64,000 nt of DNA from Chthoniobacteraceae bacterium (GTDB lineage: Bacteria; Verrucomicrobiota; Verrucomicrobiia; Chthoniobacterales; Chthoniobacteraceae): positions 41,471 to 105,470 of the forward strand of contig JANNWY010000212.1 of NCBI GenBank assembly GCA_031409335.1, read 5' to 3'. The notes under the pieces were generated by a model. It was not told the origin of the DNA. It searched no databases and was given only the letters and a program-made list of their open reading frames with translations. Shown one piece after another: positions 6,048-51,561 of this stretch. The position numbers and the translations under genes were made by a program. Positions within the stretch are counted from its first letter, which is position 1. Each line of letters starts with the position of its first letter.

Positions 6048-6072
6048 CTTTCAAGAATCCGCTGGAATCGCG

Positions 6073-32879: not shown

Positions 32880-33240
32880 CTGGATTCGGAAGGCGGAGGG
32901 CGACTACCTCGCGGCGGTCGCGTTGTCGCGCCGGAGAAAAGTCCCGCTGCACGATCAGGTGTGTTTTCACTGCCAGCAGAGCGCGGAAAAATATCTCAAG
33001 GCGCGACTCGAAGAAGCCGGGATTCCTTCGCCAAAAACTCATGATTTGGAAAAACTGCTTATTCTTGTGACGCACGTCGAACCACTTTGGTCGGCGCTCG
33101 GATTGCATCTGAAACGTCTCACGGATTACGCGGTTAATTTCAGATATCCCGGGAGCGAAGCGACCGCCCGGGAAGCCAAAACAGCGCTGGCGGATTGCAA
33201 AGCGATGCGAAAAGAAGCGCGAATCGCCCTTCACCTGTAG
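32860..33240 (+). CDS. HEPN domain protein
   Basis: WIRKAEGD, CFHCQQSAEKYLKA, KTHDL, FRYPG. Confidence 0.88.
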   Translation: MKAATRDWIRKAEGDYLAAVALSRRRKVPLHDQVCFHCQQSAEKYLKARLEEAGIPSPKTHDLEKLLILVTHVEPLWSALGLHLKRLTDYAVNFRYPGSEATAREAKTALADCKAMRKEARIALHL

Positions 33241-34506: not shown

Positions 34507-34573
34507 AGACTTGTTTCGCGCCGCCGCCGTCGCTTAAGTGCCGCTCTTCAAATTTCCCAAACCGACTTTCCCA

Positions 34574-35815
34574 ATGCCCATCTACATCGAAATGCCGAAG
34601 CTCAGCGATACCATGACCGAGGGCACGCTCCTCAAGTGGATCAAACAGGTGGGCGATAAAGTGGAGAGCGGTGATGTGGTGGCCGAGGTCGAGACGGATA
34701 AGGCGACGATGGAAATGGAGGCGTTTGACGATGGCATTTTGCACAAGCATCTTGTCGCGCCTGGCGCAAAAGTGGCGATTGGCGGAAGAATCGCGCTGCT
34801 TTTGCAAAAGGGCGAAAAGGCTCCCGCGGAAGGCGAGGCGATTCCTGAAAGCCCGCGGAACATCGCCGCGAAAGCGGACACGACTGCGCCGCCGGTGCAG
34901 GCAAAGGCTCCCGCTGCCACAGGGGCGGCTGCGAGTGGTGCGCGGGTGAAGGTCTCGCCGCTGGCGAAAAAGATCGCGGCTTCAAAAGGCGTGGAGCTTT
35001 CCAACGTCAGCGGCACAGGCCCCGGCGGGCGGATCGTGGCGAAGGATGTCGAGAGCGCGGGAACGTCCAACGTTCAACGTTCAACTTCCAACGTCCAAAT
35101 CCCTGCCACGCCGGCGGGCGCGGGCGATCAGCGTTTGCCGCTCAGCGGGATGCGCCGGATCATCGCCGAACGACTCCTCACCAGCAAAACGACCATCCCG
35201 CATTTCTATCTCCACATCGAAGTCGATGCCGGGCCACTGATGAAGGCGCGCGCTGCGTTGAACGCGGTGACCGAGGCCTCTGGCGGACCGAAATTTACAG
35301 TCAACGATTTCATCCTGAAAGCGGTCGTGAGCGCGGCGGTGAAAGTGCCCGCGGTGAATGCCAGCTTTGCGGGCGACGCCATCATTCAATACGGCAGCGT
35401 GAATCTCAGCGTCGCGGTCGCGGTCGAGGACGGACTCGTCACGCCCGTCATCCGCGATGCGCAGAAAAAATCGCTGCGCGAAATCAGCGAAGGCGTGAAA
35501 GACCTCGCGACCCGCGCGCGTGGCAAAAAGCTAAAACCCGAGGAATACGCAGGCGGCACCATCACCGTTTCGAATCTCGGCGCGTACGGCATCGAATCCT
35601 TCAGCGCGATCATCAATCCGCCGCAGGCCATGATCCTCGCCATCGGTGCGATCGTGAAAAAGCCGGTGGTGAATGACGAAGGGCAGATCGTCGTGGGCCA
35701 GCGCATGAGCGTCGGCCTGAGCGCGGATCACCGCGTGGTCGATGGCGCAGTCGGTGCGACCTATCTCGCGGAATTGCGGAAGCTCATCGAGCATCCGACG
35801 CTGATGCTGCTGTAG
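34574..35815 (+). CDS. pdhC: Pyruvate dehydrogenase E2 (dihydrolipoamide acetyltransferase)
   Basis: Lipoyl domain VETDKATME, E3-binding SPLAKK..GTGPGGRI, catalytic DHRVVDGA. Confidence 0.93.
   Translation: MPIYIEMPKLSDTMTEGTLLKWIKQVGDKVESGDVVAEVETDKATMEMEAFDDGILHKHLVAPGAKVAIGGRIALLLQKGEKAPAEGEAIPESPRNIAAKADTTAPPVQAKAPAATGAAASGARVKVSPLAKKIAASKGVELSNVSGTGPGGRIVAKDVESAGTSNVQRSTSNVQIPATPAGAGDQRLPLSGMRRIIAERLLTSKTTIPHFYLHIEVDAGPLMKARAALNAVTEASGGPKFTVNDFILKAVVSAAVKVPAVNASFAGDAIIQYGSVNLSVAVAVEDGLVTPVIRDAQKKSLREISEGVKDLATRARGKKLKPEEYAGGTITVSNLGAYGIESFSAIINPPQAMILAIGAIVKKPVVNDEGQIVVGQRMSVGLSADHRVVDGAVGATYLAELRKLIEHPTLMLL
35062..35098 (+). repeat. Heptamer tandem repeat inside the pdhC linker
   Basis: aacgtcc aacgttc aacgttc aacttcc aacgtcc aa, read as TSNVQRSTSNVQ. 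Confidence 0.75.
35753..35815 (+). repeat. pdhC 3'-end direct repeat, copy 1 (functional)
   Basis: Encodes GATYLAELRKLIEHPTLMLL*. Confidence 0.9.
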
Positions 35816-35857
35816 GCGTGGGTTGCCTTTCCGCGAGCGTTGCGTCATCGTCTCGGA

Positions 35858-36511
35858 ATGGTCGTTCAGACGCCAACGCCGAAACCCGCCCGCAATGGAG
35901 GGGCGTCGCGCATCACCTTCGGCCCGCTTGCCGACCGGTTCGGAGTGTCGCTGCCGCGGGCGATGTCGGAGGATGAATTTTTCAACTTCTGCCAGGCCAA
36001 CGATCCCATGCGCATCGAGCGCACTCACGAAGGAGAAATCATCATGATGGCACCGACCGGCGGCGAATCCGGAAATCAAAGCGGAGAAACTTTTGGCCAA
36101 CTTCGAGACTGGGCTCGCCGCGATGGCGATGGCATAGCTTTCGACTCTTCGGCAGGCTTCGTTCTCCCGAACGGAGCCATGCGCGCGCCCGACGTGGCGT
36201 GGGTGCGCCGCAAACGGCTCGCGACATTGACCGCGGAACAGAAGCGCAAATTTCTCCCACTCTGCCCCGACTTCGTGATCGAAGTGCGCTCCCCCACCGA
36301 TCGCATCGCCAAGCTCAAGGAAAAGATGGCCGAATACCTCGCCAACGGCGCGCAACTCGGCTGGCTGATCGAGCCCGACCAGCGCCGGGTCCACGTCTAT
36401 TCGCCCGACGGTCGCGTCGAGATTCTCAAAAATCCGCGAAGCATCTCGGGCGATCCGTTGCTCCCCGGTTTCACGCTCGATCTCCAGCCGATTTGGGAAC
36501 CGGGCTGGTAG
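35858..36511 (+). CDS. Uma2 family PD-(D/E)XK endonuclease
   Basis: GEIIMMAP, RAPDVAWV, PDFVIEVRSPTD, KMAEYLANGAQLGWLI. Confidence 0.92.
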   Translation: MVVQTPTPKPARNGGASRITFGPLADRFGVSLPRAMSEDEFFNFCQANDPMRIERTHEGEIIMMAPTGGESGNQSGETFGQLRDWARRDGDGIAFDSSAGFVLPNGAMRAPDVAWVRRKRLATLTAEQKRKFLPLCPDFVIEVRSPTDRIAKLKEKMAEYLANGAQLGWLIEPDQRRVHVYSPDGRVEILKNPRSISGDPLLPGFTLDLQPIWEPGW

Positions 36512-36534
36512 GCGGCGTGCGTCGCAGATTGACC

Positions 36535-36597
36535 GGCGCGACCTACCTCGCGGAACTGCGGAAGCTGATCGAGAATCCGACGCTGATGTTGTTGTAA
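36535..36597 (+). repeat. pdhC 3'-end direct repeat, copy 2
   Basis: Encodes GATYLAELRKLIENPTLMLL*; 55/63 nt identical to copy 1. Confidence 0.9.
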
Positions 36598-36620
36598 GTC
36601 TGTTGTCGGTTGGACGCGTT

Positions 36621-38117
36621 TTACTGTCCGTTTAGTTTCCCGCGACTGATTTTGAGAGTCGATTTCAGGTTCTTTTGAGTCGCGGGGTTGGAGGTTTCCA
36701 CGGTTTTCTTGGTCAAAGCTTCATAGATATTCACCTTTAAGTCCCCCGCCCAGCCATTGGTGTACGCGTTGCTCACGCCGATTTCCATGCCTGGCCCGCT
36801 CGGAACTTTCAGGACCACCGTTGCTTCCACCTGACTCGGCGAGCGGTCGATGACCGTCTTTTCAAAGCCGAAAGCGCGCTCGCTTTTAACAAAGCCAATA
36901 TCGTCACGATCCCAACCGCTTACAAAATGTGGCGGCACGATGAGCTTGGCGACGGCCTCGGCTGTGCTCGGAAAGGTCAGTTCGCATACTGCGGACGGAC
37001 CCGAAAAGCTGATCAAAAGGGATGCGGTCAGTTCTTTGGTTGGCATCCCAGCCTTTCCTTCGCGAAAGGAAGCTTCCCAATCGTTGAGTTCGATGCACGC
37101 AATTTTCCAACGGGGGATGAGCACTGGCTGACCCAGCCCCGACTTTAGCCGGACAGAGTATTCATCCATGCTAAGCATCCGGCCCGTCACTAACTGGTAG
37201 TCCAGGAGGAATATCCTCGCTTCCGTCGTGTCTTTCGGTGACGAGGGAGAAGGTTGGGGAGGCAAAGTCCTGACATTGGGAACGATGACCTCATTGCACG
37301 AAACACAGTCCACCTTATACGGTTGCAGGCTGGCTTTCAGCTTTGCCAGCGGCACTTCGAACCGGCTCCAAAATTCCTTGATCGGCTTTTTCAATGCCAC
37401 CAACTCCTTACCATCCGTTGGATTGAGAAAGCGGATATTGAACGATCCGGCAAAACCATTTGCCCGATTGCAAAGCACTTCGCATTCGAGCAGATCGATA
37501 GCCGGGATCAGGAGCGTGACGTCCGCGGAGAGACTGGTTACTGAACGATCATTGCCTCCTTTTTCGAACCACACGCTCGTTCGATCAGTCCCGGCCTTGT
37601 CGTCCGTATCCTGTCCCGCGGTGAATTTTGGTTGCCCATCCACCTTGGAAATGATCGTGCCCCGGGTGAAGAGGATCGTCGCCGCCTCCGCCTCGCCCTC
37701 GCAGACGATCCGAACCTTTACTTCTTGTTTATCCTGCCGCTTCTCAGGCGAAAGCCAGTCCGTTAGCTGCATCAGGCTGACCTCGGCCCTTTGAAAGGTC
37801 TGCGTCTGCCCACCCATGTCAAAACCAACGGTCGTCGCGTCGATCTTCGTCACCCGTCCGTTGATCCATCCACGATTGACGAGGAACAGGCGATCAACTC
37901 CTTCCTGTGCAGGTTCGCTCTTGAGCCCCGTTTGCCACGACATCTCCGCTGGTATGGGGTCAGCATAGCCATTGGCTGAAAGCAGTAACAGGCAGCATCC
38001 AGCCAAAGTTATCCGCTTGATTGTCTGGATCTCGGATCCCGAAGTCGAGCGGGCGAGAACCGCCGTTTTGGTGAACGCGGCCAGGAATGGTTGCGAGCGA
38101 AGTATGTTTTGTTTCAT
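36621..38117 (-). CDS. Hypothetical exported protein with an internal two-fold duplication
   Basis: ATG 38117; hydrophobic LAGCCLLLLSANGYA; two similar halves; A/T-richer than the backbone. Confidence 0.65.
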   Translation of the reverse strand: MKQNILRSQPFLAAFTKTAVLARSTSGSEIQTIKRITLAGCCLLLLSANGYADPIPAEMSWQTGLKSEPAQEGVDRLFLVNRGWINGRVTKIDATTVGFDMGGQTQTFQRAEVSLMQLTDWLSPEKRQDKQEVKVRIVCEGEAEAATILFTRGTIISKVDGQPKFTAGQDTDDKAGTDRTSVWFEKGGNDRSVTSLSADVTLLIPAIDLLECEVLCNRANGFAGSFNIRFLNPTDGKELVALKKPIKEFWSRFEVPLAKLKASLQPYKVDCVSCNEVIVPNVRTLPPQPSPSSPKDTTEARIFLLDYQLVTGRMLSMDEYSVRLKSGLGQPVLIPRWKIACIELNDWEASFREGKAGMPTKELTASLLISFSGPSAVCELTFPSTAEAVAKLIVPPHFVSGWDRDDIGFVKSERAFGFEKTVIDRSPSQVEATVVLKVPSGPGMEIGVSNAYTNGWAGDLKVNIYEALTKKTVETSNPATQKNLKSTLKISRGKLNGQ

Positions 38118-38155
38118 AATAAGTATTTGTTGAGCACGAATAGATGGCTTGCCTT

Positions 38156-39157
38156 TCATAAACCGGGTGGATGGCGCAAAACAAAGTTGGCAGCGTAACG
38201 CGGGGACGTGCTCCACCGTGGACCGGATTCACCAATACCGCGGTGGCCGCCGGTATCGAAGCGCAATCCGCACACGGTCATGAAGACGTGGCCCCGGCCG
38301 GCGTAGATCGTGATCCAGCGACCGGGCCCAGGTTGCCCATACGACCCGAAGCTGCTCGAGGTCAGAGCCCCGGCGAGAAGCCCGGCCTTCCGCAGCACGT
38401 AGGAAACGCTGCCGGAACAATCGTAACCTGAGTCTTCCATTTGACGATGGCCGCCACCCCACTTGTACGGCTTGTTCTGGAGCATGTTTCCCGCGGCGAT
38501 GGCGCGCTGCACTTCATGGGGAGCTTCGGTCGGCACGGCGACAAAGCGCCCCAGCGGCAACCGGAACGGCGGCAGCACCTCCCGGACTGCCTCAGGCGCG
38601 CTTGGCGAAAAACCCGCGGCCACCAATTCCTCAGCCAGGACCAGCGGCCAGCGCTCGTTCTGAAAGAACCCGCGATTGATGGCAAGATGGCGCCGGACGC
38701 GGGCGATGAATTCGCCGTGAAAAGCCGAACCCGCGCTGGCCAGGGCGGGATACCGCTGCATCGCTTCGGTCTGCGCCGGTTTGGAGGCATCCAAGAGAAC
38801 AGCCGACTCCGCCGCGGAGTCGCCGGACTTGGGCGCGGAAACGTCGGAGGGCACACCCGCCGCTGCGACTTCTGCTGCCAGCAAGAGGGGCCACCGCTCA
38901 TTTTGCAAGAACGCCACATTTTCCACCCGGTATTTCTCCGCGCGCGCGAGAAATTCGCGATGGAAAGGCGACCCCGCGCGGCTCAGTTGCGGATACTTTG
39001 CGATCGCCTCGGCTTGGGCGGATATCGCGGCACGCAGCGCCGCGCGCGGCGCATTCGGCGGCAGCACGACCGCCTCTTCCGCGACGAGCCTCGCGGCTAC
39101 GGCGAAGAATAACGTGAGGCAGGACTTCGAGCCGTATTGTTGGTGGCTGATTTTCAT
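38156..39157 (-). CDS. NlpC/P60 peptidoglycan endopeptidase with two N-terminal unnamed repeats
   Basis: PYKWGGGH, GYDCSGSVSY (catalytic Cys), GHVFM. Confidence 0.85.
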   Translation of the reverse strand: MKISHQQYGSKSCLTLFFAVAARLVAEEAVVLPPNAPRAALRAAISAQAEAIAKYPQLSRAGSPFHREFLARAEKYRVENVAFLQNERWPLLLAAEVAAAGVPSDVSAPKSGDSAAESAVLLDASKPAQTEAMQRYPALASAGSAFHGEFIARVRRHLAINRGFFQNERWPLVLAEELVAAGFSPSAPEAVREVLPPFRLPLGRFVAVPTEAPHEVQRAIAAGNMLQNKPYKWGGGHRQMEDSGYDCSGSVSYVLRKAGLLAGALTSSSFGSYGQPGPGRWITIYAGRGHVFMTVCGLRFDTGGHRGIGESGPRWSTSPRYAANFVLRHPPGL

Positions 39158-39208
39158 ATTGAGTTCCTTCGATCGGATGCTTGGGATTTTAGTGCGGATG
39201 GATTCGCG

Positions 39209-40267
39209 TCAGTTTTGGGCGGTCAGCCGGCCAGCTCCGAGCAGCCGGAAGCTCACTGGAATCGCGAGTTTGTTTCTCCGGATGTCTTCCAGCGAAATGC
39301 CCAGAGCGAGACAGGCTGCGGGGGTGAGGTCGATTCCCGCAGGCACCAAATCGTTGACCGCCGGGGCCGAGGGGCCGTTGTCGATCAACTGGACCAGCAC
39401 CGACCTTCCTTTGTAGGTGACCACGACCGGGGAAAACCAGGGCAGGCCCGAAATCCGCGCAAATGGAGAACCCAAGGTGGACCGGCGGGCACTGCTCACG
39501 GGTAACGCACAGCCCAGGATTCCGGGATTGTCCCGAGTGTGGCACCCGCTGGCGCACTTGCCATTGTCGTTGGGGTCGCGCACGCGCAGCTTCGGATCCC
39601 AGCCGAAGACCGTCGCGATCGCGTGGGGCACGACGAGGTCGCTGCCCTCCCGATAGGTTCTCAGAAACCGCCATTCCGGCGCCGACGACAGCGGCGTTCC
39701 GCGAGAAGCGGTGGCTTGCGAATCCACACGGCCTGGTTTCCCCATTGACGGAAATCCCGCTGCGACGACCTCCTCAGCCAGAGCCAAGGGCCAGCGGTCA
39801 TCCTTAAAAAAGGCGCTGTCCTGGGCCAATCGGCGTTGCACTCTTGCGATGAACTCCCCGTGGAAGGCCGATCCCTGCTTTGCCAGTTCAGGATGGCGGA
39901 GCATCGCCTCAATTTGCGCCGGTTTGGAGGCGGCAAACAGTTCCCGCGGGGTGGCGGAACCGCTTCCTTCATTCGCGGAATCATACGGATTCAAGCCTGC
40001 CGCGGCGATCTCGTCCGCCAGTACCACCGGCCATTGGACGTTCTGAAACAAGGCGCTGTTCGCAACTCTGTACTGCCTGGCGCGCGCGAAAAATTCCCGA
40101 TGGAAGGCCGACGCGGCGACTCCCAGAGCCGGATACCTTCTCACCGCCTCCGCCTGCGCAGCCGCACTGGCCGCGGGCAGTGGTGAGATGTCCCCGGCTT
40201 GGGCCGCAGCGATGGCGGTGGCGACGAGGGCGGCGGCGACGGAGCGGGCAAGGAGTTGGAGTTTCAT
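39209..40267 (-). CDS. RlpA-like double-psi beta-barrel protein with two N-terminal unnamed repeats
   Basis: Signal peptide; VVVTYKGRSVLVQLIDNGP...GIDLTPAACLALG. Confidence 0.72.
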   Translation of the reverse strand: MKLQLLARSVAAALVATAIAAAQAGDISPLPAASAAAQAEAVRRYPALGVAASAFHREFFARARQYRVANSALFQNVQWPVVLADEIAAAGLNPYDSANEGSGSATPRELFAASKPAQIEAMLRHPELAKQGSAFHGEFIARVQRRLAQDSAFFKDDRWPLALAEEVVAAGFPSMGKPGRVDSQATASRGTPLSSAPEWRFLRTYREGSDLVVPHAIATVFGWDPKLRVRDPNDNGKCASGCHTRDNPGILGCALPVSSARRSTLGSPFARISGLPWFSPVVVTYKGRSVLVQLIDNGPSAPAVNDLVPAGIDLTPAACLALGISLEDIRRNKLAIPVSFRLLGAGRLTAQN

Positions 40268-40350
40268 GAGCGGGGTGGTGCTGCTCTGTCCTTGGGAAAC
40301 TCCTGCCCGACGATTCGCGAAAAGTTCGCGAAACCAAAAAAAAACTGCCG

Positions 40351-42348
40351 CTACTTCGCTGGCGGTTCCGGCCCTGACCCGTTTTGTCGCGTCGCCGCCA
40401 ACTGCGTGCGGACCGCATTCACCGCCGCGACGTCCGCCGACTTGCCTGCGAGGCTCCCTGCCAAGGTGGCCAGCGCCGCGTCGTATTGATCGTAGATCGG
40501 CTTGAGCTGCGCCGCGCGCTGGGCTGCCGCTGCCTTCGCCCCCGCGCGATACCCGGCGCGCAACGTCGCCAGCGCCGCCACCATTCCCGCCGCATCCGCC
40601 TCTGGGATGGGCTGCCCGCTTTTCAGCAGCCGCATCTCTTCCTGGAGCGCGCCAAAACCCGCCTGATCACTCGCTCGTTGCGCCACCTCGCTCCCGCGCT
40701 GCACCGCCGCGAGATGCTTCGCCCGCACCGCCTGTATCGCCTGGACAAAAGAGGGTTCGATTTTGGCACAAGCGGCTTGGTGCCATGCTTCGAGTTGCGC
40801 GAGCTTCGCCTTCGTCTCCGCGCTCACCGGCGAGGCCAGCAGCTTCGGCTCCGCCCAGATCGAGTGATCGTCCGTCGTGTTTCCCGCATTGTCGGTTTTG
40901 AGGGTGATCATTTTCGTCCCCACCGGAAGCTCCGCCTCGATCTTCACTTCGTGGTTGGGATACGTGCCCAGATTCTCGCTGCGGAAAACTTCCCTCCCAT
41001 CCGCCAGCACCTGATAGTTCCACGAAAAGTTGCGCCGACTGGCCTGTGTCGGCGCGATGCCGACCGCGGTGAACTTCGAGTACCCCGGCGGCACCTCGAA
41101 AGACACCTCGCTTGGCGCATGGGCGAAGAGAAAATGCTGGCACGTGTTTCCGCCGACGAGGATGCGTGCCCCGCGGTCTTCCGCCGCCTTGGCGTAGCGG
41201 TTCACGCGATACGATCCAAAGCCCACTCGTTGCGCCGTCGGGATGAGATCGTCCAAACGCAACTCCAACGGAAACGACGATCCGGCCACTGCCTTGGCAC
41301 TCGAAAAGAGAACTTCCCACTCTAAAATGCCTGCCGATCTATCGCCGGTGAACTGTGCCGCGATTCTCAGCCCCATCGTTTTCACGGGCGTAAAGAGGGA
41401 GGTATTCCATTCGTTCAATGCCGGAGGGCCCGGCTGCGTATCCACCGGCATCCACGCCCCATCCTCCGCCAGATACAGCATCTTCCAATAGTGCGGCAGC
41501 TTCACTTGGCTATTATCTTGGTACCAATACACCGAGCTGCCCTCGACTGTCTGCGGGGTCGCGAATCGGTACTCCACCCACTCGAATGTTCCCTTGCGCG
41601 GACGCCACGTGAACCGCGGGATCAATGCATCCTCCGAGGAGGAGGGTCGCTTCCCGTCGTTGAGCGCCGCCACGGTATCACTCACGCAGCAGTGCGACGC
41701 TGAGGGCGAGGCCGGGGTTGGCTTTCCGGTCGTGCCGGCTTTCGCCGGAGTCGAAGCCGTCGCGGCTGGGGCCATGGGCAAAGCGGGCGTTTTCGCGATG
41801 GCGGCGACGGGCGCGGCGGCTGGCGCGTTTTTCGGCGTGATCACGATTTTGCCGTTCGCGGTCGTGTATTGCGCACCAGCCGAATCGCAGATGCTTTTTA
41901 GAATTTCCGCTACCGTGGCTTGGTGCGGCCACGAAGAGTACGACACGCGGACTTTGGAAAGGCTCCCCGTCGCATCTTGAATCTCGAACGGATTCGGCCA
42001 GCGCGAAGTTCGGTAGCGCACCACGAGGGAATCCACGGCATCGACCAACTTGTAGTCCCTAAACCCACCCTCCACGGTGGCGGCCATCACCTGCTCAAGC
42101 AGATGCGCGGGCATTTTTTTCTCGATTTCCGCCTTCGCCGTTTGGGCTGCGGCATTCCCGCCGTCGATGCGGAGCGCGAGGTCGTAGCAATTCGCCGCCG
42201 CCACCAGGTCGCCGCGTTTCTCAGCGGCTGCGGCCCGGGCCAGAAAGGCCCTCGCCTGCTCCTGCGGCGTGAGCGCATGGCTGTGGGCGAGGGAAAGCAG
42301 GAGCAGCGCGGCGAAAAGGAGCGCACGTGGGATGGGGATTGTTTTCAT
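40351..42348 (-). CDS. Secreted multidomain protein (TPR-like, discoidin/F5-8C-like, NPCBM/NEW2-like)
   Basis: Signal peptide; ALNDGK..EWVEYRF..SSVYW..GILEWEV; FAHAPSEVSFEVP..DHSIWAEPKL. Confidence 0.7.
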   Translation of the reverse strand: MKTIPIPRALLFAALLLLSLAHSHALTPQEQARAFLARAAAAEKRGDLVAAANCYDLALRIDGGNAAAQTAKAEIEKKMPAHLLEQVMAATVEGGFRDYKLVDAVDSLVVRYRTSRWPNPFEIQDATGSLSKVRVSYSSWPHQATVAEILKSICDSAGAQYTTANGKIVITPKNAPAAAPVAAIAKTPALPMAPAATASTPAKAGTTGKPTPASPSASHCCVSDTVAALNDGKRPSSSEDALIPRFTWRPRKGTFEWVEYRFATPQTVEGSSVYWYQDNSQVKLPHYWKMLYLAEDGAWMPVDTQPGPPALNEWNTSLFTPVKTMGLRIAAQFTGDRSAGILEWEVLFSSAKAVAGSSFPLELRLDDLIPTAQRVGFGSYRVNRYAKAAEDRGARILVGGNTCQHFLFAHAPSEVSFEVPPGYSKFTAVGIAPTQASRRNFSWNYQVLADGREVFRSENLGTYPNHEVKIEAELPVGTKMITLKTDNAGNTTDDHSIWAEPKLLASPVSAETKAKLAQLEAWHQAACAKIEPSFVQAIQAVRAKHLAAVQRGSEVAQRASDQAGFGALQEEMRLLKSGQPIPEADAAGMVAALATLRAGYRAGAKAAAAQRAAQLKPIYDQYDAALATLAGSLAGKSADVAAVNAVRTQLAATRQNGSGPEPPAK

Positions 42349-42367
42349 CGGTTGGCGTTCGGTGGCG

Positions 42368-45300
42368 TTATCGGTTGAGCCGTGCGTAACCCCATTTGGG
42401 AACGTCTTCGATCACGACGAGGCCGTGTTGAAAGGTGTGATTGGTTTTGAGGGTTGTGCCTCCGAAGCGCGCGATGCGCCGCTTTTCGTCGTCGCGAAAA
42501 ATCCAGTCGCCTTTCGTATCGATCAAACCGCCGGACTCCTTTGTCCACACCGCGGCGACACCGGGAGCGATCCATGCGATGCGATCGAATTGTGGTGGCA
42601 GCGCCGTGGTGCCGTCCCGATGCAGCAGGCCGTATTTTTGCCGTGCATCGCGGGCGGTGATGAGACCGCCGCTGCGTGGGTCGGTCTCACGATCGCGCCA
42701 CGGCTCCGCCCACACCGCCGCAGTCAACGGGCGGCCAGCCTCGTCGATGAGCAACCACGGCGCGCCCTTGCCGGCAGCCGCGTCCGCACGTCGCCATCCC
42801 CGCGTGGCGGTTGCTGCGACCGCATTGCCCCACGCGCGAGGCACCACGGCGGCACCCTCGCCTTTCCGCATCACGATCAGCGCGTCTTTCTCGACAAGCA
42901 TCGCACCGACGGAGAAGTTCATCCACCGGTGCGCGGGATCGATCAACAAGGCACCGGTGCGATCGATCAGCGCGGCCTCAATGCCGATCGTCACCCGTGC
43001 GACATCCATCGACACCGGTGCACCATCGTCCGCGGGATCACCGTGCCATTCCCAAAAGTCGCGGGCCGAATCCCACACCGGCTCGATCGCCACCTTGCCC
43101 TGCGGGTCGAGGTAGCCCCATCGCCCGTCCTTTTGCACCGCCGCGAGGCCGCGGCTGAAATCCATCACTGCATCCCACACCTGCGGGACTGCGACCTTTC
43201 CATCCAACGCGATGAAGCCCCACTTCCCCTCGCGCTGCACCGCCGCGCGGCCTTCGAAAAAATCGTGCGTCGCCTGCCACTTGTCGGGCGAGATGGGCTT
43301 TACCTCAGTATCGACGACCACCCACCCATCCGGCTGGTGCAGCGCGGCGCGGCCCTCGACGAAACCCCAGCCATCCGGCTTTTCCTCCAGCGGCTGCGAG
43401 TGCTGGAAGTCGTGGCCATCGCGACCCATCAGCCGCCAGCGCGAGGTCGCCTTGTCGCGTATCCAGAGCAGGCCGTGGCTGGCCTGCTCCCAGTTCCAGC
43501 GCAGGGCGGCGGCCTCGGGAAAGCGCGTCTGCTTTCCGGTCGCCGACTCGATCAGGCTGAGGACGAAGCCGCCCTGCCCGTCCGGCTGTTTAATGACGAC
43601 ATGCGCCGGGCCGTAAAAATCCACGTAGGTCGCGTCGGGCAGCGTTTCGGGGATGGCCGGCTGCCCATTGATTTGCAAAATCTTTGTCGTCGCGCCGTCC
43701 TTCACGCGCACCCACGGCGAGAGGAAGCGTTTGCCGCCCCAGCCGAGGAGGATGGTCTTGCCGTCTTTGGCGAGCGTCGCCCACTCCACGAGCAGCACGT
43801 CCAGCGCATCCCACACCGGCGCGATGAGCACCTTCCCCGTCCGATCGGCCAGCCCGATTTTCTCATCCTGGCGAAACCACACCCACTCGGGCGAAAGGAT
43901 GTGCGCCTCATCCCAAGTCGGCTCGACCAGCGTCTTCCCGGTCGCGTCGATCACCCCATACTTCGGCGGCGTGGTGCGGGGAATAAAATCGTCGAGCACG
44001 GTCGATCCCGGTGCGACCGCATCGACGACTTTAGCGCCGCTGCCATCGAGAATCGCGGCGGCCCGTCCGCCGTCGTAGGAGTCCGTGCCTTGATAGCCAA
44101 ACGGATGATTACCGTAGCCACCCGACAGCGGGTTCTCGGTGCGCAAACCCATGAGTCCCGGCTTGCCCTCCGGTGCCGCACTCTCCTCCCCTTTGAGATT
44201 GAGCCCCCTTCCTTGAACGACCCGATTCGTAGAATCCAATTGTTCAAGCTTCAGAAATCCATTCCGAAACTGAGGCGCTTCGTTAGCAACACCTCGCCAA
44301 AAAAGCTTCCACGTCTTGCCGCCAAATGCCGCTTTCCCGTTCTTCTCCACGAAGGAGGTCGTTAAGAATGCGTAAAGTCGTACAGGGTCAGAGGTAACTG
44401 CGGCTAAGCCTTCCGAGAAACCCCCGATCATTGTCCAGGCAGGTTCCGCGATGTGCTCTCCATCCGGCCCGACCAATCCCCATTTGAAGCCTCGTCTGAC
44501 GGACGCGACCCCATCCCGAAAATCCCGCACCTCATCCCACTCGGGCTTCGCAACGACATTGCCGCTGCGATTGATGAAGCCCCAGAGGTTACCCCGCCGA
44601 ACGGCGGCGAAACCGTCGCTAAAATCCCGCACTTCATCCCACTCGTTCTTGATCACGATTTTCCCTGCCCGATCAATGAAGCCCCACTTCCTGCTTTTTG
44701 ATAGGCAAGGAGCCAATCCCTCAGAAAATCGACGGATTGTCGTAAACTGATGAGGACGGACCACCCACTCGCCCTTGCGATCTGCCAAGCCCATGGTTTC
44801 TGCTTCCCGCAGGAGAACATGCACTAACTCATTGGATTCCCATCGAAATTCGCCTGCCACCGTTCCTAACTTCTGTCCATTGGCACCGATCAACCGCGTC
44901 CTCTCGGGAGAGGAGCAGTAAAAGAAATCGTTCCGCATGATCGTAGACTTGCAACGCGACTCCGGGACTTCCTTGCCGTAAAGATCGAGCAACGCGCTAT
45001 ACCGTTCCTCCGGGCGGTCGCTTAGCCCGTAATACAGCCTCAGCAAGCCAAGATCGAATCGGCGGTCGGGCCTCCAGTTGATGCTGCAATTCGGTTCACA
45101 GAGCAATTGCCCGGCTGTATCGACAAGCCCCCAACCCGCGCCCCGCCGCACCATGCCGACTCCCTCCTTCGCAAAATTCACCGCCCCGTCCCACACCGGC
45201 TCTACGATCACTTTGCCGGCCTTGTCGATGAACCCGCGCTTTCCATCGCGCGTCACCACCGCGAAGCCTTCGGGCGAAAAGCGCCAGGCGTCGTCCCAGT

Positions 45301-46207
45301 CGCAGGGGATCGTCAGCTTTCCGCTGGCATCCAGATAGCCCCACTTGCCGTCCTTTTGCACCGGGATGAAGCCGTTGATGAAGTGCTGCACGTCCTCCCA
45401 CTCGGGCGCTGCCACCAACTTGCCGGCGCGGTCGAGCAGGCCCCACTTGCCGCCCTGGCTCACGCGCGCGGAGCCTTGCTCCCCGAAAGGCTCGATCGTG
45501 TCGAAAGTGGGCGGCTGCACGACCGCGCCCGCTTCGTCGATCACGCCCCACGCTTTCCCTGCGCGCACCCGCGCCAGTCCCCAGCGCGAGAAGGGCGTGA
45601 CCTCATCGAACTGCGGCTGGATCGTCCACGACCAGCCCTTGTTTTTCCAAGTCTCCGTGCGCGGCCAGCGGAGGAAAACCTGGCGCGGCGGTGAAGAAAC
45701 CGCGTCATCGGCCTTCGTTGTCGTCACCGCGAGCACGTCCGGGCAATCGATGACTTTCGTCGCGAGATTGTCGCGCACCCAGACGGTCGAACCTTGTTGT
45801 GCAGGGTAGGTGTCGGTGAGCCAGCCGGTGAGTTCTTTCCGGCTTTTCTGCGCGGTCACGGCGATGTCGAGGATTTCCGCACCGGTGCGCTCGGCGAGTT
45901 CGCGTGCCTCGCCGAGGGTGAGTTTTTTCCGGCTCAGGCCGATGAACCCCGAGGCGTAAGGATCAATTTGCCCGATCTCTTTGATGAGCAGATCCTTGGT
46001 GGTCGCGCCGCTGGCGACGAGGCTGGTGAAGTAGGTGTTGTTGAACGTGCGCTTGCGGTCGAGCTCGCGCTTTTTGATGACATCGCCGATCTGCCGCCAG
46101 GCAATGAAGACGGCGAGCCCTCCGAGCAGCAGCAGCGCGACGGTGCCGAGGATGCGCAGGTTGCGATTGAGGCCGAGGTAGGCGGTGAGCAGTCGATTCG
46201 GTTTCAT
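42368..46207 (-). CDS. Membrane-anchored WG-repeat protein
   Basis: Many GKWG(F/Y)ID..G..V..P.WD...F.EG units; N-terminal TM. Confidence 0.9.
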   Translation of the reverse strand: MKPNRLLTAYLGLNRNLRILGTVALLLLGGLAVFIAWRQIGDVIKKRELDRKRTFNNTYFTSLVASGATTKDLLIKEIGQIDPYASGFIGLSRKKLTLGEARELAERTGAEILDIAVTAQKSRKELTGWLTDTYPAQQGSTVWVRDNLATKVIDCPDVLAVTTTKADDAVSSPPRQVFLRWPRTETWKNKGWSWTIQPQFDEVTPFSRWGLARVRAGKAWGVIDEAGAVVQPPTFDTIEPFGEQGSARVSQGGKWGLLDRAGKLVAAPEWEDVQHFINGFIPVQKDGKWGYLDASGKLTIPCDWDDAWRFSPEGFAVVTRDGKRGFIDKAGKVIVEPVWDGAVNFAKEGVGMVRRGAGWGLVDTAGQLLCEPNCSINWRPDRRFDLGLLRLYYGLSDRPEERYSALLDLYGKEVPESRCKSTIMRNDFFYCSSPERTRLIGANGQKLGTVAGEFRWESNELVHVLLREAETMGLADRKGEWVVRPHQFTTIRRFSEGLAPCLSKSRKWGFIDRAGKIVIKNEWDEVRDFSDGFAAVRRGNLWGFINRSGNVVAKPEWDEVRDFRDGVASVRRGFKWGLVGPDGEHIAEPAWTMIGGFSEGLAAVTSDPVRLYAFLTTSFVEKNGKAAFGGKTWKLFWRGVANEAPQFRNGFLKLEQLDSTNRVVQGRGLNLKGEESAAPEGKPGLMGLRTENPLSGGYGNHPFGYQGTDSYDGGRAAAILDGSGAKVVDAVAPGSTVLDDFIPRTTPPKYGVIDATGKTLVEPTWDEAHILSPEWVWFRQDEKIGLADRTGKVLIAPVWDALDVLLVEWATLAKDGKTILLGWGGKRFLSPWVRVKDGATTKILQINGQPAIPETLPDATYVDFYGPAHVVIKQPDGQGGFVLSLIESATGKQTRFPEAAALRWNWEQASHGLLWIRDKATSRWRLMGRDGHDFQHSQPLEEKPDGWGFVEGRAALHQPDGWVVVDTEVKPISPDKWQATHDFFEGRAAVQREGKWGFIALDGKVAVPQVWDAVMDFSRGLAAVQKDGRWGYLDPQGKVAIEPVWDSARDFWEWHGDPADDGAPVSMDVARVTIGIEAALIDRTGALLIDPAHRWMNFSVGAMLVEKDALIVMRKGEGAAVVPRAWGNAVAATATRGWRRADAAAGKGAPWLLIDEAGRPLTAAVWAEPWRDRETDPRSGGLITARDARQKYGLLHRDGTTALPPQFDRIAWIAPGVAAVWTKESGGLIDTKGDWIFRDDEKRRIARFGGTTLKTNHTFQHGLVVIEDVPKWGYARLNR

Positions 46208-46244
46208 GGGATCAGGGCAGAGAGGTCAACGGAACGCGAAGCGC

Positions 46245-46381
46245 GGTGGATGGCGCGCTCCGCCGCGCCATAAGAAAACAATCCGCCGCAGGCGCACTTT
46301 CGCTGTCCGGGCGTCCGGGAAAAAGTTGGCTCGCTGCACTCGATTGGCTTTGGCATGGCGCGGCGGAGCGCGCCATCCACC
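46245..46381. repeat. REPIN-like element (family C)
   Basis: Perfect 27-bp inverted arms 46245-46271 / 46355-46381; GTGG then hairpin atggcgcg-ctccgc-cgcgccat. Confidence 0.85.
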
Positions 46382-46394
46382 TTGGGTTGCGTGT

Positions 46395-48044
46395 TCATCG
46401 GGCGGGAGGGTTGGCGGCGGGGGCACGGTCGCCGGCGACGATCGTGGTCGGGTAGAGCTTCAGGACTTTCGTGGCCCAGCTCTGCTTGTCGAAAAGGCCG
46501 ATGTTGCTGGTGAAAGTGTATTTGCCTGGCAGGCGCGGCGCATAGGCTATGAGATCGAAAGTGATCTCGCCTGCGCCGTTCACGCTCTCGTAGCCGGGGC
46601 GCGATTCGGTGTCGAAATGCCAGGTCGCTGCGTGGTTCGCGCTCAACTCCGCGAGGAATTCCGGCGGGAGAATGTTGGCGTCTTTCATCAGGAGATTCGA
46701 CGCGAGTTTCGTGGGGTCCGGTGCTTTGTAGCGGGCGGTGACGTTGAGCGTGAACTTTTCGCCCGCTTTGGCCGGGATGGTGATTTCCTTCGCCAGCGAA
46801 AGCGTCGCGGGCGGGCGGACGGAGGTGATCTCGATCTCATAACGCGGGTCCCATCCCCAAATCATCGAAATCGGCTGCATCGTTGTGGCGACCGTTTCGC
46901 CTTTGGCCGCCTCCCTCATCTCGATCTTCAACTCGTCGGCCTCAACTGCGTCGATGCACAGAAAACTGACCTCAGCGTCGCCCTTGCCTACTGGATACGT
47001 CCTGGTGTCTCGAGTGCGAGGATGGCCCACCACTTCCCCGTCCTTTCGCGGTGTTGCCCAGAGGCGAACATCGCTTGGGCCGGGGTTATTGTATTCGACC
47101 ACAGCTTTCAGCGTGTCACCGATTACCATAGAGGTCGCAGGCTTGGGTTCGACTGCTTTGATCCTTACCCAGGCGTGATCCTTGTCGTTCCGCAGCGGGT
47201 ACCAGTTGAAAAGCGCGGTCCGCCGGCGGTCGAGCGTCGTCACGGGATTAACGTCCGGCCCGTCGAGCACGCGCGGCTCGCCGGCTTCCATCGCCCACGT
47301 CGTCGTGCCGAGCAGCTCGGGGTAGGCGGCGGCGACGGCCTCGATCACCGGCTGGCGCATGGCTACTCCCGGCGGTTCGATCGTGAGGACGTGGGAGCCG
47401 GTCTTCTTCGCGAGCGCCTGCGCCTGCACCCATGTGAGTTTTTCCCGGCTCACGCCGAGGAAAGTGACGCCCATCGGCTGGATGTTTGTCACTTGCTGCA
47501 GGTCGGCCGCCGTCGTCGCGCCGGACGCGATCAACTCTTGGAAAAACTTGTTGTTGATCACTTCGATTCTCTCGTCGCGCTTAATGTTCAATGTCGTGGG
47601 GACTTTCCGTGTCGCGAGGAAAATGCCCAGTCCGCCGAGCAAAAGCAGCGCTGTCGCGCCGAGGATCACGAGGTTGCGATTCGACTGCCGGAGGCGGGTC
47701 GCCAGCACCGTGAAAACGCCCGGCTTTTCCGCCAGAGGAGCGGCGGGAACAGCCGGTGCGGCGGCGCGGCTGCCGGGAACGGGCACGGGGCTGCCGCAGG
47801 TGGGGCAGTCGAAATGCGAACTGTCCTGGAGCGAGCGCAGGGTTTCCAAGTCGATCTCGATCGCCACCGCGCAGGCGGGACATGGGATTTGGATGCCTTT
47901 GATCCCCGGCGCGGCAACTGGCGCTGGTACTGGGACATTCCCTTTGCATGTCGGGCACTCGAACTCCGTCGCGCCGTCGAGGGCGGCGAGCGTTTCGGCG
48001 TCCAGTTCGAGGGCTTGGGTGCAATGCGGGCAGGTCGTTTCCAT
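46395..48044 (-). CDS. Membrane protein with two Zn-ribbons, TM and lectin-like module
   Basis: ATG 48044; CPHC..CPTC and CPAC..CPTC; TM ILGATALLLLGGLGIFL. Confidence 0.75.
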   Translation of the reverse strand: METTCPHCTQALELDAETLAALDGATEFECPTCKGNVPVPAPVAAPGIKGIQIPCPACAVAIEIDLETLRSLQDSSHFDCPTCGSPVPVPGSRAAAPAVPAAPLAEKPGVFTVLATRLRQSNRNLVILGATALLLLGGLGIFLATRKVPTTLNIKRDERIEVINNKFFQELIASGATTAADLQQVTNIQPMGVTFLGVSREKLTWVQAQALAKKTGSHVLTIEPPGVAMRQPVIEAVAAAYPELLGTTTWAMEAGEPRVLDGPDVNPVTTLDRRRTALFNWYPLRNDKDHAWVRIKAVEPKPATSMVIGDTLKAVVEYNNPGPSDVRLWATPRKDGEVVGHPRTRDTRTYPVGKGDAEVSFLCIDAVEADELKIEMREAAKGETVATTMQPISMIWGWDPRYEIEITSVRPPATLSLAKEITIPAKAGEKFTLNVTARYKAPDPTKLASNLLMKDANILPPEFLAELSANHAATWHFDTESRPGYESVNGAGEITFDLIAYAPRLPGKYTFTSNIGLFDKQSWATKVLKLYPTTIVAGDRAPAANPPAR

Positions 48045-48046
48045 GG

Positions 48047-49759
48047 CTATTGAGGTGGAGTTTTGGGTGCGGAGATTTCCGGGGCAGGGAGCCATTGGAC
48101 GATGGCTTTCCGCGGACGATCGGGGTCGGTCGCGGGCAGTAGTTTTCTTCCGTCAAACAGCAGACCTTCGCCTTTTCGACGAACCCACACGCCTTCCGCC
48201 AAATCGGCAGGGAACGTGGGAAGCAGCCATTCGAGCAGCCGCTGCGGTGAGACGGTGTCATCCTGCTCGATGGCAAGGATGCTGCCGCCGGTGCGCGCGG
48301 CGAGATCGCCCGCTTGGGCGAAGGTGAAAGGCTCGCGGCTGATGCCGACGTAGCTGACGCCGAAGTGGTGGATTTCCGCGAAGGATTCCAACTCTCTGGC
48401 ACCGGGACCAGTGGTGAAGAGTTGGGTAACGTAGCTGTTGTTCGTCTCGGTGCTGGTGGTGGAGGTTTCCGAGTTGTGGGTGTCGCCTGTCTTGCGATGC
48501 GCGAGGATAAAAGCGAGGCCACCGATGGTCAGCAGCGCGACCAGCCCGAGGATGAGCGTGGTCGTGTTCAGCCCGCGCGTCGTCTCGAGAATCAGTTCCG
48601 TGGATTGCGCGTCGTACTGGAGCGTTGCCGGTTTTTCCTCCCGAATCGCGGGCGTTTGTCGGCGGCGCGCGAGCGGGCCGCCCGCGAGACTCGAGGGCAG
48701 CGGCTCGGGCTCGACGCCGGCGGGCAGCGGGCAGCCGCCGGAAGTGACTTTGATCCAATCCACGTCGAGCATGAATTCGGACGCCGACTGGTAACGCTCG
48801 GCGGGATTTTCCTGGAGCGCGCGGAGGACGACTTCATCGAGCCGCGCGTCGATCTCGACCTTCTGGCTCGGCGGCGACCACGCTCCGTGCGGCAGGGTGC
48901 CGGTGAGGAATTCGTAGAGCATCACTCCGAGCGAATAAAGGTCCGCGCGGTGGTCCACCCGCCGACCATCGCGCTGCTCAGGAGCCATGTATTCGGGCGT
49001 GCCCACGGTGCCGCCGGGGCGGGTCAGCGTCGGGTTCATCCTTGGGCGCGATTTCGTGCCGACGATCCGCGCGAGACCGAAATCGGCGACCTTCGCCCGC
49101 CCGTCGCCGGTCACGAGGATGTTCGACGGTTTGATGTCGCGGTGAACGATGCCCGCGCCGTGCGCGTAGTGCAAAGCGGAGCAAACCTGCGAGATCAGTT
49201 CGAGCGCTCCGGCCAGGGTCAACTGCCCGTTTTCGCGCAGCGCACCGATGTGGGCGCCGTCCACCAGTTCCATGACGAAGTACACGTAACCCCCGGCGGT
49301 TTTTCCAAAGTCGTGGACCTTTGCGATGTGCGGATGATCGAGCGCGGCCATCGCCCGGGCCTCCTGCTCGAAGCGAGCGAGCGCATCGGGGTGGCCGCCA
49401 TTTTCGACGGGCAGGATTTTGACGGCGATCTCACGGTGCAAGCGCGTGTCCAGCCCGTGATAAACCGCGCCCATTCCGCCGCGGCCGAGGAGCGCGGTGA
49501 TCCGGTAGCGGCCCTCGAAAGAGCCATCGAGTTCCTCCGGCGCGGGCGCTTCCCATTCGCCGTCCGCCGGTTGCGGGGTCTCGAAGCCGCGCATCAGCAG
49601 ATGGCCGGCCTCCAGTCCATCGAGAGAATCCGCGGCAGCCGGGACCGGGACGGGCTGCGAGCACGAGGGACACTCGAAATCGGCGCGGCCTTGCAGCGAC
49701 GCCTTGGCCTCCGCGTCGATGGCGATCTTCTGGGCGCAATGTGGGCAACTCACTTTCAT
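48047..49759 (-). CDS. Hanks-type Ser/Thr kinase (Zn-ribbon, kinase, TM, extracellular module)
   Basis: GRGGMGAVY, IAVK, HRDIKPSN, DFGLA, GTPEYMAPE, DLYSLG. Confidence 0.95.
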   Translation of the reverse strand: MKVSCPHCAQKIAIDAEAKASLQGRADFECPSCSQPVPVPAAADSLDGLEAGHLLMRGFETPQPADGEWEAPAPEELDGSFEGRYRITALLGRGGMGAVYHGLDTRLHREIAVKILPVENGGHPDALARFEQEARAMAALDHPHIAKVHDFGKTAGGYVYFVMELVDGAHIGALRENGQLTLAGALELISQVCSALHYAHGAGIVHRDIKPSNILVTGDGRAKVADFGLARIVGTKSRPRMNPTLTRPGGTVGTPEYMAPEQRDGRRVDHRADLYSLGVMLYEFLTGTLPHGAWSPPSQKVEIDARLDEVVLRALQENPAERYQSASEFMLDVDWIKVTSGGCPLPAGVEPEPLPSSLAGGPLARRRQTPAIREEKPATLQYDAQSTELILETTRGLNTTTLILGLVALLTIGGLAFILAHRKTGDTHNSETSTTSTETNNSYVTQLFTTGPGARELESFAEIHHFGVSYVGISREPFTFAQAGDLAARTGGSILAIEQDDTVSPQRLLEWLLPTFPADLAEGVWVRRKGEGLLFDGRKLLPATDPDRPRKAIVQWLPAPEISAPKTPPQ

Positions 49760-49830
49760 GGAAATGATTTCTCGCTACCTCCTGCTTCGGTATTGCCGGA
49801 AAATGGTTTCGCGGGAAGCATCGAATTGTG
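49738..49830. repeat. 93-bp direct repeat, copy A (kinase 5' end and upstream DNA)
   Basis: Ungapped match to 50675-50767, 82/93 identical by hand count. Confidence 0.9.
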
Positions 49831-49868
49831 GGAACAAAATCGCGGTGGCGTGTTCGCGCGATCCGCGG

Positions 49869-50696
49869 CTAACGCACGACGAACGCGAAGTCCTGCGTGG
49901 CCAGCAGGTGAAAGTGGGGACAGCCGCAGGGGTGCGCGCCGCAGCCCAGATGGGTGTAGTTCGCGCGCAGGATATTGGCGCGATGGCCCGGCGATTTCAT
50001 CCACTGCGCCACGACGGCCCGCGCATAGCCCCAATAGGTGTAACCGCCGGCGCCGAGGCTCGAAATGTTTTCACCCGCCGCCATGTTTTTCGCACCCGCC
50101 GCGTCGAGCCGCAGGAAGGGACTGGCTTTGGCGGGATCGCGAGGATTTCCATGCGAGAAAAACCCGCCGAGCGCCATGTCCCGCGAATGTCCCCAAGCCG
50201 CCTCGCGCAGGGCCGGCAGCGGGATGAGCGGGCGCAGTTTTTGAGACCGCCGCGCCGCGTTGGTGGCGTGAAAAATGGCGGCGCTGAGGAAGGCATGGTC
50301 GAGCGCCTCCCGATCGAGCTTTTGCCGCGCGAGTGGGAGCTGGCTGAAGGTTTCCGCCGTGTGGCCGGAATACCAATCCGCCAGCGGGTTCGGCGTTGGC
50401 GTGTCCGCCGGCGGCAGTGCGCGGGCGATTTCATCCGCGAGAGCGAGCGGCCACGCGGGGTCGTCGAAAAGACTGGGATTCTCGGCGCGGGCTTTTTGCA
50501 CCCCGGCGAGGAATTCGCGATTGAACGCGGAGCCGGCCACGCCCAGCGGCGGATATTTTTTCACCGCTTCCGCCTGCGCGACCGCGCTGGCCGGGGGTGG
50601 TGCGGGCGCCTCTTGCGCTGGCGCGAACGATCCGGGCAGAGCCAGGCACGCGGCCAGGACGATGAAGGGGAGGGAATGCGGGCAACTCGTTTTCAT
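49869..50696 (-). CDS. CAP/SCP domain secreted protein with one unnamed N-terminal repeat
   Basis: ATG 50696 (MKTSCPHS); TNAARR, HSRDMA, GENI, WMKSPGHRANIL, TQDF. Confidence 0.88.
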   Translation of the reverse strand: MKTSCPHSLPFIVLAACLALPGSFAPAQEAPAPPPASAVAQAEAVKKYPPLGVAGSAFNREFLAGVQKARAENPSLFDDPAWPLALADEIARALPPADTPTPNPLADWYSGHTAETFSQLPLARQKLDREALDHAFLSAAIFHATNAARRSQKLRPLIPLPALREAAWGHSRDMALGGFFSHGNPRDPAKASPFLRLDAAGAKNMAAGENISSLGAGGYTYWGYARAVVAQWMKSPGHRANILRANYTHLGCGAHPCGCPHFHLLATQDFAFVVR

Positions 50697-50767
50697 AGGC
50701 ATGATTTCTCGCTGCCTGCTACTTCGGTATTGCCGGAAAATGGTTTCGCGGAAAGCATCGAATCGTG
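50675..50767. repeat. 93-bp direct repeat, copy B (CAP 5' end and divergent promoter region)
   Basis: Matches 49738-49830. Confidence 0.9.
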
Positions 50768-51496
50768 AAAAAGACCCACGAACCCGCCGCGCATGGATTT
50801 CCCGCCACGCGGTGGAGCCTTGTCCGGAAGGCGTGCGATTCCGGTGAAAGGGAGGCGGACTTGGACGCGCTCCAGCAGGTCTGCCTGGATTACTGGTTTC
50901 CACTCTATGCCTGGGCGCGGCATTCGCGCCGGTCGCAGGAGGATGCCGAGGATTTGATCCAGAGCTTTTTCGAGCAGTTGCTCGAAAAGGAATTTCTTCA
51001 ACGCGCCGATCGGGAAAAGGGACGCTTGCGGACTTTCCTGCTGACGTGTCTCAAACGCCACGCCGCGGATCTCACGGACAAGGCGCACGCGGCGCGGCGC
51101 GATGCGCGGAAAACCATCTCGCTCGATTTCGAGTGGGCCGAGGGCCGCTACCACGATCACCAGCAGGATTCCAACGGCCCGGACAAACTCTACGACCAGC
51201 GCTGGGCGCACGCCCTGTTGCAATATGCGCTGGCGGCTTTGCGCGAGGAACTGGAAGCCGATGGTCGCGCGACGGAATACGCCATCTTAAAGTCGTTTCT
51301 CGGTTTCGATGCCGACGAACAAACGTCGTCGAAGGATGCTGCCGCAAGCCTGGGCATCGGTGAGGCCGCGTTGAAATCGCGAGTGTTCCGGTTGCGAAAG
51401 CGATTTCACGAAATCGTGAAGAATCACGTCGCGCAAACGGTCGGCAGCGATTTGAAGGCGAAGGACGAATTGATGGAATTGATGAGCGTCATTTGA
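50765..51496 (+). CDS. ECF sigma factor (PVC kinase-associated type)
   Basis: FPATRWSLV, YWFPLYAWAR, DAEDLIQSFF, GRLRTFLL, region 4 AASLGIGEAALKSRVFRLRKR. Confidence 0.9.
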   Translation: MKKTHEPAAHGFPATRWSLVRKACDSGEREADLDALQQVCLDYWFPLYAWARHSRRSQEDAEDLIQSFFEQLLEKEFLQRADREKGRLRTFLLTCLKRHAADLTDKAHAARRDARKTISLDFEWAEGRYHDHQQDSNGPDKLYDQRWAHALLQYALAALREELEADGRATEYAILKSFLGFDADEQTSSKDAAASLGIGEAALKSRVFRLRKRFHEIVKNHVAQTVGSDLKAKDELMELMSVI

Positions 51497-51498
51497 CC

Positions 51499-51561
51499 CG
51501 CGCGACCTGTCTGGTGGAATTGCGGAAGCTCATCGAGAATCCGTCGCTGATGCTGCTGTGA
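51499..51561 (+). repeat. pdhC 3'-end direct repeat, copy 3 (decaying)
   Basis: Encodes RATCLVELRKLIENPSLMLL*; 54/63 nt identical to copy 1. Confidence 0.88.

Follow-up and report, generated by a model that had tools for sequence, protein, structure and literature searches.

Duplicated pdhC ends in a Chthoniobacteraceae bacterium as probable scars of successive integrase-free, homology-anchored captures

The 64,000-nt window analysed here (contig JANNWY010000212.1 of the Chthoniobacteraceae bacterium assembly GCA_031409335.1, forward-strand positions 41,471 to 105,470) contains an intact pdhC gene, encoding the E2 component of pyruvate dehydrogenase, followed by two stretches of cargo that each end in a further copy of the last 21 codons of that gene (Table 1). 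The inserts, termed cassettes 1 and 2, measure 719 bp and 14.9 kb and are delimited by direct repeats of 63 nt. These orphan tails are probably the scars of two successive captures of DNA from diverged relatives, anchored by homology and carried out by no integrase. Such an ordinary, homology-driven capture is the most likely origin because a similar scar marks about a dozen genes of this genome and because the pdhC breakpoints of relatives differ. The repeats, their allele pattern, the variation of breakpoints between genomes, the multiplicity of targets and the lack of recombinases in the inserts are all direct observations.

In the 7.9-Mb assembly, blastn recovered the live tail and these two copies only (E ~1e-16, against 0.06 for the next-best match), at precisely the positions and with the differences given in a preliminary description of the window. 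Copy 2 departs from the live tail at 8 positions; 7 of the changes are synonymous, the TAG/TAA stop included, and the remaining one is an H/N exchange. Only 50 of the 189 possible single changes are synonymous, and the probability of at least 7 in 8 under neutrality is 5.6e-4. This bias supports the view, already put forward in that description, that copy 2 comes from a recently translated pdhC allele, seemingly a foreign one. Copy 3 carries 9 differences that alter five residues; at synonymous codons it lies a single step from the live tail, versus six for copy 2. It is likely a decayed, older resident tail, in keeping with the earlier proposal that the oldest tail is furthest out. Both orphans directly follow the hexamer TTGACC where pdhC has GCAGTC, as originally described. 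They had also been said to begin at the same codon, which is true within 1–2 nt, the homology of copy 3 starting at tail position 2 (first codon CGC). A comparison of the live gene with three relatives (G002–G004) in 63-nt windows gave no resolution for a mosaic boundary inside pdhC.

Misassembly of strain variants, raised in the preliminary description as a way in which the arrangement could prove spurious, deserves attention in a metagenome assembly whose runs also hold related organisms. However, single contigs cross each junction with 0 differences, for copies 2 and 3 in two samples. Run X1, possibly the source run, provides contigs over 35606–41189 (live tail and copy 2) and 49115–52769 (copy 3), and run X2, from another sample of the same study, over 36227–37519 (copy 2) and 49117–52766 (copy 3). 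Since these contigs span the junctions without differences and read depth is level throughout the cargo, misassembly retains a negligible probability. Neither an excised circle nor a clean skip of a cassette occurs among the joints listed from the runs' contigs, which lose rare forms.

The preliminary description raised the possibility that the locus is an undescribed, trans-mobilised capture site at pdhC, an idea that the rest of the genome does not support, as the same kind of scar recurs at unrelated genes. An anchored scan on our own gene calls (orphan tail within 20 kb, score of at least 18), with paralogue ends (contig C304) and repeats with long shared flanks (C324, C49) filtered out, detected orphan tails at 13 of 5155 genes against 0 of 5155 internal anchors (Fisher p 2.4e-4). 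One of the 13 is the mirror of the pdhC repeat, leaving 12 genes; the duplicated tails of other core genes that the description had suggested looking for are thus present at 11 genes besides pdhC. The targets include argF, dxr (whose operon with rseP is split), ubiD, an mqnA-like gene, a glycosyltransferase gene and a hybrid kinase gene, among others, and the repeats span ~21–121 nt at the 12 genes and 194 nt at lepA. Among the cargo at the other sites are restriction-modification genes (BsuBI/PstI, a C5 methylase with Vsr, GmrSD), genes for secreted proteins and an acyltransferase gene; the final cargo gene of two inserts passes directly into the orphan tail. None of the genome's 21 recombinase matches (18 tyrosine, 3 serine) lies inside an insert, and TTGAC precedes only 2 of 14 junctions, both at pdhC. 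An earlier, looser scan yielded a few additional orphan tails, one of them with a 38-kb insert. A mirror scan encountered an upstream copy of the gene start at 8 of 5158 genes; such duplicated starts are seen on contigs C170 (near 56845), C252 (near 33641, counted from the minus-strand start), C107 (near 31702) and C57, and two of the genes concerned are, judging by their first residues, presumably prfC and cas1.

The most legible of these scars is situated between the convergent lepA and argF genes, where two cargo blocks are divided by back-to-back orphan ends (C325:61669–61932). The argF orphan, with 10 synonymous and 2 other changes, is fused to a 194-nt lepA end that is 93% identical to its counterpart and carries 13 synonymous changes and no others. 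The two meet at TCGGCG, a 6-nt microhomology found in both genes. This is the expected trace of a chromosomal fragment that came from a ~93%-identical relative and had been cut within each of the two flanking core genes; for an att-based element, an end within a second housekeeping gene would be unexpected. No argF orphan was detected in relatives, with five candidates scored per genome. In relative G092, a lepA orphan behind a toxin–antitoxin-like pair (C58:99140–100301) consists of an internal piece of lepA and its last 99 nt. It represents a longer duplication shortened by internal deletion, and a present-day breakpoint therefore need not mark the crossover site.

Variable cargo downstream of pdhC, anticipated in the preliminary description, is indeed found in relatives; tails preceded by TTGACC, a linked recombinase and an empty site joining pdhC to the FG-GAP gene that follows copy 3 are not. 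The comparison covered pdhC loci from ~150 genomes of the family together with more distant ones, the named relatives being mostly Chthoniobacteraceae, Chthoniobacter or Verrucomicrobia. A first set of 110 loci, some genomes entering twice and many with short downstream DNA, left 106 usable foreign loci once the own locus, two without a stop and one in the wrong frame were set aside; none of the 106 had a tail copy. Two of 44 further loci did: G101, with an orphan of ~48 nt and an insert of 2.4 kb, and G115, with an orphan of ~40 nt and a 0.96-kb insert made up of a toxin–antitoxin-like pair. A pattern scan that matched 78 of 151 genomes added G171, whose ~53-nt orphan is on a separate contig; the 20 loci from its follow-up held no tail copy on the same contig. 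In these three genomes, all of other genera, the orphans start elsewhere in the tail, follow other cargo and lack TTGACC. Among 401 genomes, TTGACC followed by the tail occurs in the own genome and in one unrelated place (unrelated DNA in G273). Of the earlier proposal, repeated uptake of cargo at this site is supported and a single fixed crossover is not: copies 2 and 3 agree within 2 nt, but the breakpoints of the relatives differ. G116 has a candidate second tail that begins at the edge of a contig, and G106 and G017 carry two whole genes.

Within the 109 loci that extend 3 kb or more downstream of pdhC, recombinase matches were restricted to an Xer-like gene at two loci, which by its size and 79–80% identity appears to be a conserved gene, and an integron-integrase-like fragment at two loci (identical coordinates); no pdhC-linked integrase was found in any of them. 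In G101, the DNA beyond the orphan (locus 5138–6326) shows by eye small phage- or island-like genes, among them a helix-turn-helix, excisionase-like open reading frame (ORF); no integrase was matched in the 19.7-kb locus. The gene usually found beside pdhC is lpdA; of 141 loci, 27 have it no more than 400 nt away and another 15 at a greater distance downstream. It adjoins pdhC in the same-genus G003, where FG-GAP is not the neighbour; in the present genome it lies on another contig (C146:24604–25989) and is not preceded by a pdhC remnant. Short contigs of 85–89% identity in runs X2 and X3 connect the end of pdhC with the Uma2 leader, and a diverged lineage with this adjacency therefore exists, possibly the donor lineage. 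A metagenome pattern scan returned four loci, all of them live genes with short downstream DNA. No pdhC tail was found in viral contigs or phage records, and plasmids gave weak whole-gene matches only.

In the capture that we favour, the donor would be a chromosomal fragment of a relative bearing the 3′ part of pdhC and that relative's downstream genes. The pdhC end of the fragment would enter by homologous recombination, and its far end would join at a short microhomology. Two routes to this outcome, which the data do not separate, are conceivable: the fragment is trimmed, circularised and taken up by a single crossover, or it stays linear and forms an illegitimate joint inside the tail. Each capture would leave pdhC whole, place cargo behind it and displace the older tail outward, such that copy 3 would likely be the old resident tail and copy 2 the allele that arrived with cassette 2 or with Uma2. 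The prediction is that repeats persist only if short or diverged, since the cargo between long identical copies would be lost by loop-out, and longer duplications may later shrink by deletion, as happened at lepA in G092. A microhomology joint inside an unrelated donor gene is visible at argF/lepA, whereas the pdhC joints are unreadable without the donor. That pdhC is hit repeatedly probably reflects the strong conservation of its 3′ end and a dispensable, variable slot between pdhC and lpdA. ComEC and DprA, necessary for competence but no proof of it, are present; the involvement of RecA, the uptake of DNA and the donor relatives are inferred.

This type of scar has precedents. The closest is insertion with long target duplication (Furuta, Abe, & Kobayashi, 2010; PMC2853133), which goes back to an original H. 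pylori report of 2000: inserts below 20 kb without mobility genes, direct repeats above 30 bp and of variable length that span a start or stop, intact target genes, nuclease-type cargo and split operons. The pdhC inserts resemble it in size, in repeats above 30 bp that are unique in the genome and variable, and in having no mobility genes. In contrast to those insertions, described for restriction-modification cargo, much of the cargo here is of other kinds; the pdhC cassettes contain only the putative endonuclease Uma2 in this respect, the restriction-modification genes being at other sites. The copies here are also diverged alleles with a synonymous bias, pointing to a foreign homologue rather than a copied target; moreover, one gene carries two stacked events, and no empty site is demonstrated here. 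In mechanism, the nearest parallels are E. coli experiments in which trimmed, re-circularised DNA and one crossover gave target duplications of 109–950 bp, and homology-facilitated illegitimate recombination (HFIR), whose joints use 3–10 bp of microhomology (PMC3240628). These share with the present scars a single homology anchor, a single microhomology joint, a partial target duplication and the absence of an integrase. The duplications here are mostly 40–200 bp, and the published mechanisms were established experimentally, by conjugation in E. coli as well as in competent species, whereas ours is read from sequence. Arrays of displaced rhs and type VI secretion effector–immunity genes (PMC5361080) likewise push older 3′ parts outward by successive insertions without an integrase, although the displaced part is variable and selected there and a conserved housekeeping-gene end here. 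The accretion of cis-mobilizable elements (CIMEs; PMC5704250) and e14 in icd with its icdC pseudogene (PMC13626634) share with the pdhC locus a replacement tail at a metabolic gene's 3′ end, orphan tails with synonymous differences and the stacking of elements. However, these have a known integrase and an att site fixed across strains, while at pdhC no integrase was found and the breakpoints vary between genomes. Nothing relevant to a pdhC-targeting element turned up in the open-licence literature, by which absence from print is not shown. The scar is best regarded as one of an ordinary kind at a new recurrent site, and the individual (supplementary) sites of PMC2853133 may hold closer cases.

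Several observations weigh against the integrase-free capture favoured here. The two pdhC breaks are at most 2 nt apart and carry TTGAC in the same register (0.264^5 = 1.3e-3, a post hoc figure) with GCGTC upstream, and independent random joints do not predict a shared register or motif; chance, an inherited junction or a recombinase arm may each account for it. Orphan tails occur at 2 of 118 relatives' pdhC loci versus 0 of ~1258 other genes (p 0.007), by which pdhC is favoured over its neighbours. The synonymous bias is clear at some sites only (pdhC copy 2, argF, lepA); the orphans of dxr, ubiD and the mqnA-like gene are decayed and show none (3/19, 7/17 and 12/13 synonymous/other by crude counts). 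We found neither the empty site in which pdhC meets FG-GAP nor a donor carrying cassette 2 downstream of pdhC, and classical HFIR mostly yields deletions, not duplications (PMC3240628).

The shared register could be accommodated by site-specific tandem accretion, in which an unseen integrase family would use pdhC codon 394 as attB and GCGTC…TTGACC as a P-arm; two elements would have entered in turn, their integrase lost, as in a CIME, or acting in trans. The allele order suits this scheme, with copy 3 resident and decayed and copy 2 foreign and intact, the genome has 18 tyrosine and 3 serine recombinase matches, an integron integrase among them (a match above the TIGR02249 cut-off lies at a contig end, C166:399–1334), and the CIMEs and e14 set precedents. 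Yet no cognate integrase and no conserved element-side att arm is evident. The TTGA of the copy-3 hexamer belongs to the cargo: the extracytoplasmic function (ECF) sigma factor gene of cassette 2 finishes there, and 12 of its 12 closest homologues fetched stop at the identical residue, indicating a natural end that supplies these four letters. Apart from the one unrelated match, motif plus tail is absent from the 400 other genomes, the three relatives break elsewhere, the 12 other junctions examined here lack TTGAC, and neither the 109 relatives' loci nor phage records and viral contigs tie an integrase or a virus to pdhC. The pdhC junctions themselves display no inverted core symmetry and no significant hairpin (z −1.0 before copy 2, then +0.9 and −1.5). 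The absence of a recombinase, correctly reported for the window by the preliminary description, holds for its 28 scanned ORFs and, according to a tblastn search in which 20 of the 21 recombinase stretches of the genome served as queries, for the entire 105-kb contig, save for a 40-aa match inside the FG-GAP gene (E 6e-4). Site-specific accretion is accordingly unlikely, and slightly less likely still is a hybrid in which an undescribed trans-acting recombinase stacks cassettes, integron-like, at codon 394 in this lineage on top of integrase-free scars across the genome; the arm read by this hypothetical enzyme would be GCGTC-N2-5-TTGACC, which can double as the stop of the cargo gene. An inverse attC core was not seen by eye after Uma2, nor was there an Rfam match at 34000–54000, though no dedicated attC model was run.

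The common register could also have been inherited. Had the live tail and copy 3 recombined by unequal crossover, the single captured cassette would have been duplicated, and replacement of the first duplicate by Uma2, sparing ~16 nt of the ECF end, would make the copy-2 junction a descendant of the copy-3 junction with no integrase involved. Indeed, of the 16 nt leading into copy 2, 12 are alignable to the ECF end that precedes copy 3, an early crossover would produce TTGACC joined to the allele translated at the time, as seen, and PMC2853133 cites amplification between repeats of this kind. This history is improbable in that it requires a deletion ending within ~16 nt of the junction plus a later replacement of the live tail, and cassette 1 retains no other remnant of cassette 2. 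Less credible still is a true target-site duplication, in which a nuclease or transposase would have created identical copies upon insertion that diverged later. Nuclease or restriction-modification cargo at several sites (Uma2 and the families listed above) recalls PMC2853133; much other cargo has no nuclease, however, and an orphan of this origin should drift neutrally, so that the synonymous bias of copy 2, argF and lepA largely refutes it.

Should capture without an integrase be the correct account, a large share of small accessory genes, such as toxin–antitoxin pairs, nucleases and secreted proteins, would enter these bacteria with no mobile-element enzyme, conserved gene ends serving as the handles. 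Orphan tails would then record the donor allele, so that allele comparison can test the mechanism of long target duplication, and a duplicated gene end would by itself not be evidence for an att site. In Chthoniobacterales, pdhC constitutes a new recurrent slot for such capture. If site-specific accretion were true instead, the locus would represent a new integration target and cassette system.

Table 1. Features of the pdhC locus, in window coordinates
Feature	Position	Strand	Remarks
pdhC, pyruvate dehydrogenase E2	34574..35815	+	intact; TIGR01349 445.5 bits (cut-off 445); Pfam
Live 63-nt pdhC tail	35753..35815	+	peptide GATYLAELRKLIEHPTLMLL, then stop
Uma2 putative endonuclease (cassette 1)	35858..36511	+	full length
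Junction 5′ of copy 2	36519..36534	+	GCGTC-N5-TTGACC
Orphan tail copy 2	36535..36597	+	intact peptide; foreign-like synonymous pattern
Cassette 2 (14.9 kb)	36598..51498	.	eight minus-strand genes and divergent ECF gene; no recombinase
ECF sigma factor (cassette 2)	50765..51496	+	divergent; last codon and stop ATT TGA
Junction 5′ of copy 3	51486..51498	+	GCGTC-N2-TTGACC
Orphan tail copy 3	51499..51561	+	decayed; near live allele at synonymous sites
FG-GAP gene	51530..53506	-	own stop lost; runs 11 codons into copy 3 antisense

Uma2 is the sole gene of cassette 1 and one of 28 Uma2 matches genome-wide; its C-terminal residues are identical in the five nearest homologues. The minus-strand genes of cassette 2 encode an unknown ORF, an NlpC/P60-like protein, an unknown secreted ORF, an NPCBM protein, a WG-repeat protein, a Zn-ribbon protein, a Zn-ribbon Ser/Thr kinase and a CAP protein. 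On the far side, 10 of 12 homologous FG-GAP loci stop at KNPR or at most two residues away, and the other two stop 4 and 11 residues later. GC content is 0.55–0.59 right after copy 2, a weak anomaly, and resembles the host elsewhere; no tRNA or tmRNA was found, nor any Rfam match at window positions 34000–54000. Upstream of pdhC, a nucleotidyltransferase/HEPN pair with no tail copy splits an FtsX–HlyD transporter operon (32565–33240). An ECF/kinase/NlpC-like module resembling cassette 2 is present in G145, far from pdhC. In the window, a 119-nt leader occurs twice at 81% identity (49712–49830 and 50649–50767), covering the start of the kinase gene and that of the CAP gene. As judged by eye, the kinase and NlpC-like genes of the G145 module are preceded by a similar leader, so that this repeat, instead of being a scar, may be a shared promoter belonging to the divergent ECF factor.

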